Below are positions 50 to 5,970 of a DNA stretch of 6,191 nucleotides, in pieces (the first letter of the stretch is position 1; the number at the start of each line of letters is the position of its first letter). The translations under genes and the position numbers were made by a program. The stretch lies in the NCBI GenBank assembly GCA_964522265.1, contig CAZFVS010000063.1, positions 1-6,191 of the forward strand, in the 5' to 3' direction. Below the pieces are notes generated by a model. That model saw nothing but the letters and a program-made list of their open reading frames with translations, had not been told where the DNA came from and did no database searches. The DNA comes from an uncultured Gammaproteobacteria bacterium. GTDB lineage: Bacteria; Patescibacteriota; Microgenomatia; Daviesbacterales; UBA10151.

Positions 50-883
50 TCAGATGAATGAAGCAAGAGGCTCCCTAGTACTTCTTCTTTTGGGAGGCTC
101 GAGAGGTGGCAGCTTGTTAATTTCTTCCTCCAGGCCATAAATCATCCTAAGCCTGATGATTTCAGGGTCATCTGTTTCAAAACTGGGGTTTCTTGAAACC
201 ATTGCCAGTCTATTTCTGTCGATTTTATTATACATAAACACCACTCTGTTTTCTGTCAGATTTAATAAATCAAGCGCCCATTTCCTTTTTCCCAATTCAG
301 CAAGCGCTCTTGATTTTGCCACCAGTATTTCAGGAGTATCCATTACCAGCATGACATCTACGGGGATAGTCAACCCGTGCTTATTGTAAAACTCAAGAAA
401 ATAATCTATTTTATCTTCTGCCTCCGCCAATAAATTATCAATATATTCCTTGAGAGCCTCTGTTCCTTTCAGAAAAGCTTCTGTCAATCTAATACTCTTT
501 TCTGTCTCTTCACCTGTCAGCAATATCCGGAGTTTTGCCGGCTGGCTGATGCTTCTTTCATACGCCCTGAGACCCGCTGGGAACAGATGCTCCTTTTTGA
601 CCTGCAAAACTTCTGCTATACTCTTTGCTACCTCCGGAGTTGGAAACCCGCGCATTGTTTCAATATAATTTATTGCCCTGCTTGGTACATGTGCTGCTTC
701 AGCAAGCCCCCTTTGGGTTAATTTATTTGCAACATGATCTCCTTTCCTGGCGATAATCATTGCCCCGTTTGTGCGCCTGTATTCAAAAGTAACTGTTCTT
801 TCCGTAAAATGTTTCGCTCTAAGTTGTGAGAGCTGATCTATTGAGAAGGATGTTTGGGGTTCTAAATATTCTTTTAGTGCCAT
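50..883 (-). CDS. XRE/Cro-C1-type helix-turn-helix DNA-binding protein with an unrecognised ~170-aa C-terminal domain (putative transcriptional regulator)
   Basis: 277-codon ORF with ATG at 883 and TGA at 50-52. Residues ~50-101 (VANKLTQRGLAEAAHVPSRAINYIETMRGFPTPEVAKSIAEVLQVKKEHLF, nt ~581-736) follow the HTH_3/XRE pattern: LTQ-x-LA, V-S-x-x-I-x-x-E, P-x-x-x-x-x-x-IA-x-x-L-x-V, LF. The C-terminal half has no motif I can name (no HExxH, no P-loop). A near-consensus promoter lies immediately upstream. Confidence 0.8.
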   Translation of the reverse strand: MALKEYLEPQTSFSIDQLSQLRAKHFTERTVTFEYRRTNGAMIIARKGDHVANKLTQRGLAEAAHVPSRAINYIETMRGFPTPEVAKSIAEVLQVKKEHLFPAGLRAYERSISQPAKLRILLTGEETEKSIRLTEAFLKGTEALKEYIDNLLAEAEDKIDYFLEFYNKHGLTIPVDVMLVMDTPEILVAKSRALAELGKRKWALDLLNLTENRVVFMYNKIDRNRLAMVSRNPSFETDDPEIIRLRMIYGLEEEINKLPPLEPPKRRSTREPLASFI

Positions 884-979: not shown

Positions 980-3325
980 ATGGTAGAACGTAAAGCTAAA
1001 CAGGCTGCTGAAGACTTAATAAGAACTCATCAAGATGGTTCAGACCGTAAAAAACATGATAAACAAGCCCAAAACGACATAACTGAGGAGGATCGTCTCC
1101 GCGCTTCACTTGCCCTGGAAGCTCTGTTGCCCCAAAAACCTCAGACTATTAAATCTTTGGATCAGGTACTAGAGATCTATAAAAAAAAGGATGAGTCCAA
1201 TAAAATTGATGCGTTAAAATATGAAATTAAAAGCGATTCTGTCAAGACATTGTATTTGTCAGAAATTTTTACAGGCAACAACACCTCAGATATCCCCTTC
1301 TTAAGAGAGATCATTCAGAGAATTAAAGAGTTTACTCAAGAGTACCAGCCGGATATTGTTGTTGTGTCAGGACTTTTAGAAGGAAACTATAAGTTTAGGG
1401 ATAAGGATAGGCGTTCCACTCTAGTCCTTTCTTTGGACCAACAATTCGCAGCTGCAAATTTAATATTAAAGGAAATGCAGGGGTTAGGATCCGAAATTGT
1501 CTATTCGCTTTCAACAGAAGATAGGGAGATTTGCAGAGATGGGACTATTGAAGCCATGCAGGCACTTCATAATACTGCAAAACCTGTGCTTGATAAGGAT
1601 AAGGGGTTGGTAACCTACTGGCAAATTGATCAGATTAAAAAAAATCCGGCTTGGGATACACACCTAAAATTCCAAACTAATGTAGTTTTTGAATATTGCT
1701 TGCGCTCGGGAAGAAGATTGAGATCAGCAGAAGAAATCGGAAAAATCACAAAAGGCAAAATAATTATGGAAGAGTACCTCATGTTATATGATTTTTTCAA
1801 TAAATTAGCCAAATCAGAAAAGATACCTGAAGAATACAAGGAAGTCTTGGAAATAGACAATATTCCCCTCACAGATAAAAAATTTAGCACTTTTGAGTTA
1901 GTTGATGATATGGATTTAATTGTAAATGCAAATGGCAAAAATTTTACCCAAAAAATTAAACATAACCTTAAATTTGGCACCAAACCGTTAACCCGCAACC
2001 CGACTGATGTAGCTGAAGCGATTATCAAACAACAAAGCTCAGAGGGGATTAAACCACCTAATGCGCTGGTAACTTTAAACCAGCATCAGGCATTGGGTAT
2101 AGGTGATGCGGAAAACACCTGGAGTATATCAGCAGGAAGCTTTTTAAATACCAGTAAGACACTTGATCAAAAAGGCAGTATTGCCTCAGCCGGCCGTGCG
2201 CCTTCATGGAGGAATCTCACTACCAGAAAAATCTTAAGCTACCCAACTGCCACAATGCATGAGTTTACAGATGATGGCAGGCATAGAATAACTTTCTACA
2301 ATAAAAAGCTGCTGGAAAAAGCAGACAGCGCTGATAGAACCACTATTTTAACGATCACTGATTGGCAGACAGGTTCAATGTCGGCAAGGCCTGACTTGCA
2401 GGTAAAACTTTTAGATTTGGCTATCTCTGAGATTCTTACCAGTAGGCCGATGTGGATACTTAGTACCGGAGATATTTTTCATGGACAAAATTATCCAGGA
2501 TTATCTATGGAGAATTTCCGTATTGGGCTCATCAGAATTGAAGACCAGCAAAGATTTGTGGAAAACCTGCTTGAGATGGCTACTGAGCATATATCTGCAG
2601 GAAATTTATCAAACATAGTAGGTGTCAGTATTGTCCCCGGGAATCATGAATGGAACTCCTTTTATACAAAAACAGGGGCAATCTTTAACCGTTCGTTGGT
2701 GAATTTTTTTAGAAACCTTTTAGGCAGGGTTGATCCGACTGCCAGAGGGAAAGTTCGCGCCAGTGAGTTGATAGATACTCCATACGGTGATGTTGTACCG
2801 GCATGGACCTGTCTGGATGAGATAGCAGGTTATGGAGTTTTATCACAACATATGATGCTTGAGAAAGGCGGCAACGGCAGGGGTAAAGTCCCGATATACC
2901 ATGCACAAAAATTTATCGAAGGTGCCGGAGATTTAGCCAGAAAGATTGATGTGTCGTCCTCCGGCCACTGGCATCACAATCAATATGCCGTATTTGGTAA
3001 CAAGCTGCATGTTATAAGCCCTTCTGTCGCCGGATTAACCGGTTACGAACTGACACGGGGTTTGCGGCCAACCCCCGGAGGGATTCTGATTCATTTAGGC
3101 GGAGGTTTACCACCCCAGGTTGAATTTTTAAGCCTGGATACCCTGATAAACCATAAGATTGAGGAGGGGTATTTCTCGGATAAAAATCTCGCCAAAGAGG
3201 GTTTTAGAGATGACAGGCACTTTGATCCCAAAAAACATGGATATTTTCATGAGAAGGGGGCGCTGCAAAAAGCCTTATGGCATATGGCTATGGAGATGAA
3301 TAGGGATATCCACTCGCATCTTTAA
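980..3325 (+). CDS. Tandem calcineurin-like metallophosphoesterase: degenerate N-terminal MPE-like domain plus intact Mre11/SbcD-like C-terminal MPE domain (putative nuclease/phosphodiesterase)
   Basis: 781-codon ORF with ATG at 980 and TAA at 3323-3325. The C-terminal half carries the ordered MPE motifs: ILTITDWQ (D461), STGDIFHG (nt 2468-2482), VPGNHEW (nt 2639-2650), VLSQHMM (H624) and SSGHWHH (nt 2963-2977). The N-terminal half repeats the same pattern with ligands replaced: TLYLSEIFTGN, PDIVVVSGLLEGN, IVYSLSTEDRE and WSISAGSFLN. The first ~85 aa are highly charged. Confidence 0.85.
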   Translation: MVERKAKQAAEDLIRTHQDGSDRKKHDKQAQNDITEEDRLRASLALEALLPQKPQTIKSLDQVLEIYKKKDESNKIDALKYEIKSDSVKTLYLSEIFTGNNTSDIPFLREIIQRIKEFTQEYQPDIVVVSGLLEGNYKFRDKDRRSTLVLSLDQQFAAANLILKEMQGLGSEIVYSLSTEDREICRDGTIEAMQALHNTAKPVLDKDKGLVTYWQIDQIKKNPAWDTHLKFQTNVVFEYCLRSGRRLRSAEEIGKITKGKIIMEEYLMLYDFFNKLAKSEKIPEEYKEVLEIDNIPLTDKKFSTFELVDDMDLIVNANGKNFTQKIKHNLKFGTKPLTRNPTDVAEAIIKQQSSEGIKPPNALVTLNQHQALGIGDAENTWSISAGSFLNTSKTLDQKGSIASAGRAPSWRNLTTRKILSYPTATMHEFTDDGRHRITFYNKKLLEKADSADRTTILTITDWQTGSMSARPDLQVKLLDLAISEILTSRPMWILSTGDIFHGQNYPGLSMENFRIGLIRIEDQQRFVENLLEMATEHISAGNLSNIVGVSIVPGNHEWNSFYTKTGAIFNRSLVNFFRNLLGRVDPTARGKVRASELIDTPYGDVVPAWTCLDEIAGYGVLSQHMMLEKGGNGRGKVPIYHAQKFIEGAGDLARKIDVSSSGHWHHNQYAVFGNKLHVISPSVAGLTGYELTRGLRPTPGGILIHLGGGLPPQVEFLSLDTLINHKIEEGYFSDKNLAKEGFRDDRHFDPKKHGYFHEKGALQKALWHMAMEMNRDIHSHL

Positions 3326-3326
3326 T

Positions 3327-4787
3327 TCACTTGAGAAACTTTACAAACAGTTCCTTGCTGTTTAACGTTGGTACCTCGATGGGTTTTTCTGTTTTCCCTA
3401 TCTTGGGTGCAAATTTGCTCATATCAATGGGTTTGTCCCCTGTGTGCTCTTTGGTGTAGCGCTCCCTTGAGGCTCTGATTGCTTTTTCCCTGTTCTGGGT
3501 TTTAGATTGGGGGAGGGGTAGGGATTGGGCGAAAAAAGGGGTGGAAGTGAGTCCGTTTATGGACATCTTCAAAAGCAACTGATAGTTTCCCAAACTCAAT
3601 AAATCCTCTTCTTTAAACCGCTCCCCAAATTCCCTTGCCATAATCGGGGTATCCTCAGCCCCGATAATAAAGGACATAATAGTACCTGCATTGCCGAAAA
3701 TGGCAGAGCGTACCAACGGGTCAATCTGGGCGGTGTATTGGTTTGCCAGTATCAAATTCAGATGATATTTCCTGGCCTCAGATAGGATTTTGATAAATGA
3801 GGTGGTAGCAAAGTTTTGGAACTCATCAACGTAAAGATAAAAGTCACGTCTTTCGGCTTCAGGCGTGTTAACCCGGTTCATGGCTGCAAGCTGCAGTTTA
3901 GTAATAATCATTGCCCCCAAAAGAGCGCTGTTATCTTCGCCGATTCTTCCCTGGGACAGGTTTAAAATTGCTATTTTACCGCTGTTCATAATATCCTCCA
4001 GGTTAACCGTTGATTTAGGAAAGCCGACAATATTGCGGATGACCTTGGATGATAAAAACTGCCCCACTTTATTCAAAATAGGGGAGATTGATTCTTCCCT
4101 AAGCTTGTCAGGCATTTTTTCGAATTCATTGGTCCAGTAGTTGACTAAAACCGGGTCCTGCAGCTCCGGGACTATTTTCTTCCTGAACTTCTGGTTGGTT
4201 AGGACTTCGGGAACCATCATCAGAGTTGAATTGGGGATCGCAACCAGAGTGAGGATGACATTGCGCAAAATATATTCAAGCCTGGGACCCCATGAATCCC
4301 CGTACAACTTGTAAAAAATAGAAACAATGCCCGAGGCGATCAGCTCTTTTTGGGCGGGGTTTGTCACCTCAAGCGGGTTTAAATGAAAAGGTCTGTCAAT
4401 ATCAGCCGGATTTAAATAAACTATATCGTTAACCCGGTAAGAAGGTATATAATCAAGCAAGACTTCTGACAAGTCACCATGAGGGTCAATTACTGCCAGC
4501 CCCTCATTATTTCTGATATCGTTTATGGCTAAGTTGGCGATTAGCGTAGATTTTCCGGTCCCGGTTTTCCCGATAATATACATATGTTTTCTCCTATCTA
4601 TCTGGTATACCCCAAATATCGAGGATTTATTTTTAAATTCGGTCCTGGCAAAAAAATTGATGCCTCTTTTTTCCTCATCTGATAATTCATAGGCAACCGG
4701 CAGGTTTTCCGGAGGATCGGAGAGAATAGTTTTTGACCATGACAGGTTGGGGATCGTTGAGAGTGTTTTGGAAGGGAAGTGGTACAT
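3327..4787 (-). CDS. FtsK/HerA/TraD(VirD4)-superfamily P-loop ATPase, C-terminal part of a probably longer gene
   Basis: 486-codon ORF with TGA at 3327-3329. Walker A is GKTGTGKST (nt 4545-4571). It is followed by the AVIDPHGDL motif typical of HerA/VirB4/TraD ATPases. Walker B is FYLYVDEFQNF (D321-E322 at nt 3822-3827). Then come ARKYHLNLILANQ and IFGNAGTIMSF, typical of the TraD/TrwB-like C-terminal region. No transmembrane segment is evident. The reading frame stays open for 45 codons upstream of the first ATG (to 4922) with no ATG/GTG/TTG. Confidence 0.9.
   Translation of the reverse strand: MYHFPSKTLSTIPNLSWSKTILSDPPENLPVAYELSDEEKRGINFFARTEFKNKSSIFGVYQIDRRKHMYIIGKTGTGKSTLIANLAINDIRNNEGLAVIDPHGDLSEVLLDYIPSYRVNDIVYLNPADIDRPFHLNPLEVTNPAQKELIASGIVSIFYKLYGDSWGPRLEYILRNVILTLVAIPNSTLMMVPEVLTNQKFRKKIVPELQDPVLVNYWTNEFEKMPDKLREESISPILNKVGQFLSSKVIRNIVGFPKSTVNLEDIMNSGKIAILNLSQGRIGEDNSALLGAMIITKLQLAAMNRVNTPEAERRDFYLYVDEFQNFATTSFIKILSEARKYHLNLILANQYTAQIDPLVRSAIFGNAGTIMSFIIGAEDTPIMAREFGERFKEEDLLSLGNYQLLLKMSINGLTSTPFFAQSLPLPQSKTQNREKAIRASRERYTKEHTGDKPIDMSKFAPKIGKTEKPIEVPTLNSKELFVKFLK
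3509..3529 (+). other. Canonical G-quadruplex motif (GGGGG-A-GGGG-TA-GGG-ATT-GGG) on the plus strand, which is the template strand of the ATPase gene
   Basis: Four G tracts of at least 3 nt with loops of 1, 2 and 3 nt. A fifth GGGG tract lies at 3538-3541. The opposite strand encodes SLPLPQ of the ATPase C-terminal tail. Confidence 0.5.
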
Positions 4788-4846
4788 AGTGGCAATCTCC
4801 AGGACATTTAATATCTGGTTTTTGGACAGGTAATCCGTATTTCTTT

Positions 4847-5581
4847 CTAAAATCGCCCTGAGGAATTTTTTGCGTTGCCAAAAAAAAGGCCTACCAGCGA
4901 CAAACTGTTTCCCGTCACATCGTTACAACTGATGAAGGTCGCAGCGATCAGCTCAATTAAAGTGCTGTTGCGTCCTCTGGTAAGGATTCTGATAGCCACT
5001 TTAAAGCCGGGATACGATACCTTATCCGAGATCTGTTTGGAGTAGGTGCTGATCATGAACGGGTCAGCCGGTGTCAAGGCACCTTCCTCTTTGGCTCCTT
5101 TCTGCTCCATCATGCGTTGGCCTTTTGCCTGCCATTTAGGGCTTGTTGGGACCAGTAAAAACTGGACCAGAGCAACATCGTCTTTACTGAGCCTGGTTAA
5201 CATTCCCACCAGAGAAGAAAGCGGGTCCACATCCTTAAAATCTCTAAAACTCTTCAGAGGGTATAAAAAATTGTGCTGCAGCTTAACCTGTCCTGTTTGG
5301 ATATCTGACTGGTCTGCAGAAAGGTTGGTAAAAGGGTTATCTTTTATCTCAGTGACCAGCGCTTTGGGGTATTGGGATAGAAGCTGACTTTCAATATAGC
5401 TTTGGTAGCCGGGCGGAGCCACTAAATAGAAATGTATTGTTGAATCAAAAGCAGCTATCTCAAGACTGATTGGGGTATCATTTTTCAGGCTTGAGAAGGA
5501 TGCTAAAAACTGCATCATAGCTTCTGGTGTTTCTTCTCCTGTACGTGGTGTTTTGATTTCAAGAGTAACTTTTTGGTCCAT
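4847..5581 (-). CDS. Unknown-function domain protein, likely the N-terminal part of the downstream ATPase gene
   Basis: 244-codon ORF with ATG at 5581 and TAG at 4847-4849. There are no catalytic motifs and no obvious TM helices. It starts MDQKVTLEIKTPRTGEETPEAMMQFLASFSSL. From memory, this style of N-terminus occurs fused to TraD-like ATPases in uncultivated (Patescibacteria/CPR-type) genomes; I have not verified this. Confidence 0.75.
   Translation of the reverse strand: MDQKVTLEIKTPRTGEETPEAMMQFLASFSSLKNDTPISLEIAAFDSTIHFYLVAPPGYQSYIESQLLSQYPKALVTEIKDNPFTNLSADQSDIQTGQVKLQHNFLYPLKSFRDFKDVDPLSSLVGMLTRLSKDDVALVQFLLVPTSPKWQAKGQRMMEQKGAKEEGALTPADPFMISTYSKQISDKVSYPGFKVAIRILTRGRNSTLIELIAATFISCNDVTGNSLSLVGLFFGNAKNSSGRF
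4880..4887 (-). repeat. T8 homopolymer on the coding strand (A8 on plus), giving an in-phase U_UUU_UUU slippery heptamer at the frame junction
   Basis: Zero-frame codons read GGC CTT TTT TTT GGC. The heptamer T TTT TTT (4880-4886) is in X_XXY_YYZ phase. A -1 slip continues TGG CAA CGC AAA AAA TTC..., which is the ATPase frame. A second run (A6 on the coding strand, 4866-4871) also lies in the overlap. Confidence 0.8.
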
Positions 5582-5628: not shown

Positions 5629-5970
5629 TCAGGAGAAAAGTTTTCTCAAAGCTTTTTTTAATTTGATAAATTTATTTTCCTTGGAAGAATAATATGCTTC
5701 ATAATCAAATACCTCGCTCGTAGAAGCTTGATTCCAGGATATGCCGTAGGCTTTGAGGATTGGATCTTTCCCTATTCCATCGCCGTGTATTGTCAGCACC
5801 CTGATGCCATTAACAAATCCAACCACCAGATCATCCTCTGCTTTATACAGATCAGGGTTTAGAATCAGTTCATCAAAATGTTGCCTGCGATAAAACAACG
5901 CATTTGTGAGTCTATTGGGAGTTAGGTGGACAGCAAATCCTATCAACCGATCTTTTTCCAAAATAGCCAT
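5629..5970 (-). CDS. Hypothetical 113-aa protein, first gene of the minus-strand unit
   Basis: ORF with ATG at 5970 and TGA at 5629-5631, same orientation as the two downstream ORFs and 47 nt upstream of the next one. A near-consensus promoter lies directly upstream. I recognise no motif in the sequence (MAILEKDRLIGFAVHL...LTIHGDGIGKDP...). Confidence 0.65.
   Translation of the reverse strand: MAILEKDRLIGFAVHLTPNRLTNALFYRRQHFDELILNPDLYKAEDDLVVGFVNGIRVLTIHGDGIGKDPILKAYGISWNQASTSEVFDYEAYYSSKENKFIKLKKALRKLFS

Follow-up and report, generated by a model that had tools for sequence, protein, structure and literature searches.

Programmed -1 ribosomal frameshifting in bacteria, as in dnaX and the IS3/IS911 transposases, uses an X_XXY_YYZ heptamer placed where a 0 frame and a -1 frame overlap, and it is stimulated either by a hairpin or pseudoknot 5-9 nt downstream or by a Shine-Dalgarno-like sequence upstream. 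Shifting can also take place unaided; in E. coli, U_UU.U_UU.U without a stimulator shifts at a frequency of the order of 0.1% or slightly above (PMC4066793). Bacterial transcriptional slippage is found on A/T runs of about 9, with examples from Buchnera and Blochmannia, two endosymbionts, and cases of 'savior indels' accompanied by compensatory frameshifting at a low level are on record (reviewed in PMC5009743). Genes interrupted by a frameshift also occur in metagenome-assembled genomes, as pseudogene calls or as indels of the assembly, where a one-base indel leaves fragments in adjacent frames, with no other lesions and with intact relatives.

Here we compare with these systems an ATPase gene that is read in two frames on the minus strand of the window (the whole stretch of DNA that was analysed, a complete metagenomic NCBI contig of 6,191 nt). 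Like dnaX and the IS3/IS911 transposases, it has an X_XXY_YYZ heptamer in a 0/-1 overlap; unlike them, it has no stimulatory hairpin, pseudoknot or well-spaced upstream Shine-Dalgarno sequence, its overlap is not conserved, and the junction that fits the protein family is not at the heptamer but ahead of it, at GT^AGG (the caret marks the missing base), which is not slippery. With the poly(A/T) slippage rescue of Buchnera and Blochmannia (PMC5009743) it shares an AT-rich reduced genome, a homopolymer beside the frame defect, and a frame that one extra base would restore, as at the window's run of eight T (T8); in the endosymbiont cases, however, the indel lies in the tract, which is typically 9 or more long, whereas the window's tract is ancestral and 8 long, with the lesion outside it. 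The frameshift-interrupted genes of metagenome-assembled genomes show the same one-base indel, adjacent-frame fragments, freedom from other lesions and intact relatives, and the only peculiarity here is the in-phase T8 5 nt downstream, with the trace rescue it might allow. As for the protein, its ATPase half has the P-loop fold and Pfam domains of the TrwB/VirD4/TraD coupling proteins and the HerA/FtsK translocases, but the N-domain is predicted to be a soluble alpha/beta domain (DUF8128) where the coupling proteins have a membrane anchor. We consider it very probable that the locus carries an ordinary one-base deletion in a single ATPase gene, which is either a recent real mutation or an assembly error.

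Layout of the locus and identity of the protein

The features of the interrupted gene, in window coordinates, are as follows.

4847..5581, minus strand: 5' fragment of the interrupted gene, whose codons 1-230 are most of the DUF8128-type N-domain (ORF translation)
4890..4897, minus strand: true frame-change site, CTG GT^AGG, at the MAFFT gap; the family is matched in frame 0 up to V230 and in frame -1 from R231
4891-4850, minus strand: out-of-frame junk tail of the 5' fragment, its final 14 codons (GLFFGNAKNSSGRF), followed by TAG 4849-4847
4880..4887, minus strand: T8 run, CCT TTT TTT TGG, coding for P-F-F-W in the conserved (-1) frame (alignment with relatives)
4866..4871, minus strand: A6 run, CGC AAA AAA TTC, coding for R-K-K-F in the conserved frame (of equal length in L001, one of the two closest loci)
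4788..4892, minus strand: 35 conserved N-domain codons (RPFFWQRKKFLRAILERNTDYLSKNQILNVLEIAT), left without a start after the frame change (family conservation, dN/dS, AlphaFold model)
4797..4800, minus strand: GGAG 9 nt before ATG 4787, part of the conserved codons CTG GAG (Leu-Glu262)
3327..4787, minus strand: 3' fragment, a 486-aa ORF with the N-domain end, the linker and the TrwB/HerA-type P-loop ATPase (Pfam, Foldseek)

The upstream ORF runs from ATG 5581 to TAG 4849-4847 and encodes 244 aa. The ATPase frame, which is -1 relative to it, is open from 4922, following TAA 4925-4923, and has no ATG, GTG or TTG for 45 codons up to ATG 4787, from where the 486-aa ORF extends to 3327; the two frames overlap by 73 nt. 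In the upstream frame the T8 run (4887-4880) is phased CTT TTT TTT GGC, with U_UUU_UUU at 4886-4880, and a -1 shift there gives a conceptual product of 751 aa. Two A8 runs (1181-1188 and 1637-1644) are in frame within the intact 781-codon ORF. Most of this had been described in the original prediction, and its coordinates, frames, T8, A6 and A8 runs, GGAG and 751-aa product were reproduced from the sequence.

The C-terminal half of the product is a P-loop ATPase of the TrwB/VirD4/VirB4/HerA fold. The 3' fragment contains the Walker A motif GKTGTGKS, and local Pfam searches matched DUF87 at 37.9 bits (cut-off 23.2) and TrwB_AAD_bind at 36.8 bits (cut-off 20.5). By sequence, the only solved structure found was TrwB, over the P-loop, and Foldseek matched VirB4 (TrwK), TrwB 1e9r (TMt about 0.6), Cagbeta, DotL and HerA. 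The fusion of the two fragments fits a Patescibacteria family with DUF8128 and a TrwB/HerA-type ATPase in a single chain of ~720-790 aa only once the missing base is restored; members are annotated as 'type IV secretion system DNA-binding domain-containing protein' or 'DUF87 domain-containing protein'. AlphaFold models the first 300 residues of the closest homologue, P0001, as an alpha/beta domain, and we found no mention of DUF8128 in the literature. Of the label given at first, TraD/HerA-like, the HerA-type P-loop fold is borne out, but a true TraD is not indicated, the SXT_TraD model of NCBIfam scoring 39.7 bits against a cut-off of 366.

A bona fide TraD, VirD4 or CedD protein was considered and rejected, given NCBIfam scores far under the cut-offs and the lack of conjugation genes nearby. 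The TraD, VirD4 and CedD models overall reached 23-40 bits against cut-offs of 250-650 (the CD1115 VirD4-like model 27.8 against 250, and TOL TraD 23 against 648). Among the neighbours, in the window and at the locus of the second closest homologue, P0002, Pfam searches detected no conjugation, type IV secretion or relaxase genes near the ATPase gene; the genes found there encode a Metallophos-like protein, an HTH protein and proteins without a Pfam match.

Of these neighbours, the 781-aa protein (window 980-3325, plus strand) has a weak Metallophos match at residues 455-574 and no NCBIfam match. Its gene is convergent to the ATPase gene and adjoins the gene for a 277-aa HTH_3 protein (window 50-883, minus strand). 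The order of the two is kept in the Daviesbacteria locus L002, with 78% and 51% identity, respectively; neither was present in the flanks of up to 4 kb of 80 other loci or in the 2.4-kb L001 contig. Upstream of the interrupted gene, a 113-aa ORF (window 5629-5970, minus strand) has no Pfam or NCBIfam match, and L002 has an unrelated 195-aa gene at the same position and no counterpart of this ORF.

A single gene in relatives and the site of the missing base

A homologue search with the conceptual fusion of both ORFs as the query returned 7776 homologues. Among the best 120 of these, nearly all are unsplit proteins of 712-906 aa that span 94-100% of the fusion; the domain set PF26449 (DUF8128), PF10412 (TrwB_AAD_bind) and PF01935 (DUF87) is present in most, and the sole short entry (P0005) is the window's own 486-aa product. 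The named homologues in this set belong to Candidatus Daviesbacteria, other Microgenomates and Saccharimonadales, that is, to Patescibacteria (CPR). The closest, P0001 (747 aa), is 87% identical over 100% of the fusion length, and the second closest, P0002 (768 aa, from Daviesbacteria GCA_016186955.1), is 82% identical, again over 100%; the P0002 locus is syntenic with the window, having the ATPase gene, a 779-aa gene convergent to it and a gene for a 280-aa HTH protein. When P0002 was used as a tblastn query, one HSP was obtained in frame -2 and another in frame -1, the two sharing residues 221-235, with residues 1-235 matched in the frame of the 5' fragment, and in the tblastn comparison the neighbouring 781-aa and 277-aa genes were intact and free of indels.

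Residues 1-230 of the 5' fragment align with the homologues up to ...NSLSLV. In an alignment of 119 homologues, the 45 codons that precede Met 4787 rank with the most conserved parts of the protein: W235 is kept in 112/119 and Q236 in 114/119, while R247, N259 and E262, as well as H268, are present in all (119/119 each). Met 4787 itself is residue 266, an internal column of L, M or I, and not the start codon of the family. Since the homologues are unbroken across the junction and the 45 codons upstream of Met 4787 are conserved, the 244-aa and 486-aa ORFs are, judged by these alignments, halves of one gene. The original prediction had contemplated two outcomes for such a comparison; the homologues proved to be single polypeptides that align across both the junction and the 45 upstream codons, and not pairs of genes whose ATPase starts at the equivalent Met, a position that is internal here and preceded by conserved codons.

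Near the break, restored residue 253 (codon 4826-4824, TCC) is Ser in the window, where Pro is found in 115/119 homologues and Ser in 3 others. It is the sole departure from a near-invariant column seen there and is too slight to signal decay.

We aligned the DNA of the window's gene with that of the two closest genes, L001 and L002, using MAFFT. The codons at the junction are:

Window: CTG GT- AGG CCT TTT TTT TGG
L001: CTG GTA AGA CCC TTT TTC TGG
L002: TTG GTC AGG CCT TTT TTC TGG

The only alignment gap in the region is at GT^AGG, between 4893 and 4892 and 5 nt upstream of T8. What has been lost is thus the last base of the Val-230 codon, which could equally be counted as one of the two adjacent A's in an ancestral GTA AGG. 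The upstream frame fits the family to ...NSLSLV230, and the -1 frame fits it from R231-P-F-F-W-Q. A switch of frame at GT^AGG produces ...SLSLVRPFFWQRKK (LVRPFFWQRKK), identical to P0001; a shift at T8 produces LVGLFFWQRK, with G-L in place of the R/K found in 108/119 homologues and the P found in 66/119. In length T8 equals the 8-nt TTTTTCTG-type stretch of the relatives (T6CT/T5CT), and it differs from the L002 run by one synonymous TTC->TTT change, L001 and L002 are single ORFs with TTTTTCTGG, and the A6 run is identical in length to that of L001 in the MAFFT alignment. By this comparison T8 is a bystander at its ancestral length and not the lesion, and U_UUU_UUU stands in phase in the broken frame because a one-base deletion lies just upstream of the P-F-F-W codons. 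A one-base frame change between the two ORFs, as originally proposed, is thus upheld by homologues that are unbroken, but its site is the gap at GT^AGG instead of T8; nor would nine T be the intact state, the alignment predicting an extra base elsewhere, as GTNAGG. Slippage at the break itself (CUG GUA GGC) was also considered and rejected, as from the sequence tRNA-Val should be unable to re-pair on GGU.

The course of events that we propose is the following. The locus would have been one gene for ~751 aa, of a kind widespread in Patescibacteria, encoding a DUF8128 N-domain and then a TrwB/HerA-type P-loop ATPase. Loss of one base at GT^AGG (4893/4892) would have moved the reading frame by one, leaving a 244-aa N-fragment that ends in 14 junk residues and a 486-aa fragment that begins at the internal Met-266. 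T8, 5 nt downstream, belongs to the conserved codons for Pro-Phe-Phe-Trp and would have come into slippery phase only through the upstream deletion.

Recoding, phase variation and slippage

Conservation was assessed in L001, L002 and 80 further related loci from GTDB genomes (82 in total). The two-frame layout is found in 0/82 loci, including those of 87% and 82% identity; in 70 of the 80 further loci a single frame stays open over the full length of the match, and an out-of-frame break occurs in none of the 80. At the T8 position, 13 of 47 related loci have T runs of 5-7, which follow from the coding there, with the reading frame intact in every case, 7 being the longest run at this site in the 47 loci. 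None of the relatives has an uninterrupted long T run as here, the stretch being interrupted by C in L001 and L002. Neither the T run nor the two-frame arrangement, for which the original prediction had pointed to orthologous loci as the place to look, is conserved among these relatives.

The 90 nt after the heptamer (4879-4790) fold at -18.9 kcal/mol (z = -1.61), and 19/200 shuffles fold equally well, which agrees with the earlier impression that no convincing stimulatory hairpin was present. No significant downstream RNA structure was detected in 4879-4790, where the only helix is long-range and leaves no spacer after the heptamer, and no Shine-Dalgarno sequence lies upstream at a working distance of the heptamer. 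In-phase X_XXY_YYZ heptamers number 25 in the 1906 codons of the window's ORFs (13 per 1000 codons), the intact ORFs including A_AAA_AAG and two other T_TTT_TTT in phase, and ~0.3 are expected in the 24-codon overlap. An in-phase slippery heptamer here is at chance-level frequency and nothing unusual.

These results bear directly on programmed -1 ribosomal frameshifting at U_UUU_UUU (4886-4880), by which the gene would yield, in a fixed proportion, a truncated N-domain protein and the full-length fusion. The correctly phased heptamer precedes the 0-frame stop, U_UU.U_UU.U is among the motifs that shift at >0.1% in E. coli without a stimulator (PMC4066793), and the T8-shifted product departs from the family at two residues only, all of which would suit such a site. 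However, the layout is absent from all 82 related loci, the downstream fold is no better than that of many shuffles (z = -1.6; 19/200 equal) and its helix lacks a spacer, in-phase heptamers occur at chance frequency, and the heptamer is a by-product of the P-F-F-W codons and the upstream deletion. Moreover, the -1 frame preserves the conserved codons for R231-P232 ahead of the heptamer, although a programmed shift at T8 would leave them unread. A programmed -1 site would have a slippery heptamer, and U_UUU_UUU does stand in 0-frame phase upstream of the 0-frame stop; a stimulatory element, conservation in orthologues and an exact product match at the shift site are all lacking. We regard this reading, which the original prediction had entertained together with transcriptional slippage, as extremely improbable. 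Slipped-strand phase variation, also among its options, fares similarly: the tract is at its ancestral codon-register length, no frame changes occur across the 47 loci, and the relatives have neither the two-frame layout nor an uninterrupted long T run. None of the three readings, programmed -1 frameshifting, programmed transcriptional slippage or phase variation, is thus supported.

A related possibility is that T8 acts as a leaky, unprogrammed rescue or a site of fast reversion, in which U insertion, ribosomal slippage or a T8->T9 change would yield a full-length protein with R231G/P232L. T8 is well placed for this, 5 nt past the lesion and before the stop, where one extra U would give L-F-F-W; slippage on A/T runs of ~9 in bacteria and endosymbionts, like 'savior indels', is on record (PMC5009743), and a TTT in the window, in place of the TTC of both relatives, makes the run uninterrupted. 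Yet a synonymous TTC->TTT change is nothing out of the ordinary in a sequence of 42% GC, a run of 8 just reaches, or falls short of, the length needed for appreciable slippage, and R/K231 and P232 are conserved and lie in a well-folded region, so that the rescued protein may itself be impaired. We consider such a role for T8 improbable. The fuller version, in which a real deletion is combined with adventitious U8 rescue or reversion, so that a little full-length R231G/P232L protein persists in a CPR bacterium of reduced genome, seems to us quite improbable; if true, it would be a case of endosymbiont-style frameshift tolerance, yet with the lesion outside the tract.

Age of the break and its consequences

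If a single gene was broken by one deletion, the traces of selection across the junction bear on when this happened. Measured against L001, codons 1-229 have a dN/dS of 0.054, the 35 orphaned codons (231-265) one of 0.065 with dS 1.38, and codons 231-297 one of 0.047; measured against L002, the value for the C-terminal ATPase part is 0.018. By these values purifying selection acts on the sequence across the break. The 751 codons are otherwise free of lesions, and no acceleration was detected on the window's branch. Together with the low dN/dS, this indicates a break that is very recent relative to the divergence or is not real, i.e. artefactual.

The AlphaFold model of P0001 (mean pLDDT 83.9) places the break at the end of strand 227-230, before helix 234-246, at pLDDT >90. 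The orphaned stretch covers helix 234-246, strand 257-259 and helix 260-266, also at pLDDT >90, and a lower-confidence linker follows at ~281-300.

A natural split of the gene was seen in 9 of the 80 related loci (L037, L043, L045, L048, L054, L057, L059, L071 and L074), which form a single clade of distant relatives labelled as Saccharibacteria, Uhrbacteria, Falkowbacteria and Buchananbacteria MAGs. In these, 1-2 stop codons directly follow the conserved motif PPxNLP, ~370-430 codons into each match and equivalent to window residue ~297 (window ~4690), and the frame restarts 1-8 codons on. Both ORFs are in the same frame in 9/9 despite the variable spacer, a regularity to which the ranking bias of the tblastn-based search could contribute. 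The N-module and the ATPase are, on this evidence, separable, but at the linker and not at the window's break.

The locus might also be read as a genuine two-gene arrangement, or a fission in progress, with the N-fragment and an ATPase started at ATG 4787 as separate subunits. The clade in which the modules occur as two adjacent ORFs lends itself to this, as does the GGAG at 4800-4797, 9 nt before ATG 4787. The natural split, though, follows PPxNLP at about residue 297, in the lower-confidence linker and 67 codons downstream of the window's break, whereas the latter falls within a folded domain and leaves 35 strongly conserved codons without a start; Met-266 aligns with a position inside the family's proteins, and no split is seen in the closest relatives. 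The GGAG, correctly noted in the original prediction as possible support for independent initiation, is accounted for by the Leu-Glu262 codons, E262 being present in 119/119 homologues. It is a fortuitous Shine-Dalgarno-like sequence, and some restart at ATG 4787 could occur. Overall, we judge fission to be very improbable.

The gene is also mosaic. The window's N-domain is about 80% (nt) and 87% (aa) identical to L001, as against about 65% and 69% to L002, while its ATPase is about 85% (nt) and 97% (aa) identical to L002, as against about 76% and 89% to L001. The switch from L001-like to L002-like similarity lies near 4740-4700, at the linker between the two domains, and suggests that recombination or an exchange of modules took place in the past. 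We rejected an assembly chimera as the cause of the break: the similarity switch, at ~4740, is roughly 150 nt away from it, and the identities there are only 76-85%, a pattern of mosaic evolution and not of a chimeric join where the frame changes.

Returning to a one-base deletion in a single gene, two causes have to be weighed. A sequencing error would be unusual at this site, where the missing base is outside any homopolymer (at most AA->A), and with the contig's other genes free of indels this leans slightly towards a real mutation. On the other side, the contig is a short metagenomic one and the lesion fresh, which favours an error. We put the probability of a very recent real deletion in the sampled population at about one half, that of a consensus or assembly error in this short 6.2-kb metagenomic contig somewhat below one half, and consider any reading other than these two unlikely. 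Exact scans of genome and metagenome contig collections for the junction pattern GT(N)AGG with T6-T10 found no independent strain copy, and no other contig was found with exact matches to the window's three proteins. Of the four explanations first offered for the locus, a real frameshift and a single-base assembly error thus survive, while recoding and phase variation are unsupported.

For annotation, the 244-aa and 486-aa products would best be described as fragments of one DUF8128-ATPase gene, whether it is a frameshifted pseudogene or was broken by an assembly error, and not as a candidate for recoding. The locus also carries a caution, in that an in-phase slippery heptamer in an overlap may be the product of conserved codons and a nearby indel; a DNA alignment with close orthologues reveals where the lesion truly lies. 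If the break is real, the cell would be left with an N-fragment that lacks about 67 conserved residues and an ATPase that can be started only at the internal Met-266. With the folded N-domain cut in this way, as the model of P0001 predicts, the protein would probably be inactivated or severely crippled, apart from whatever trace of slippage read-through T8 may allow.
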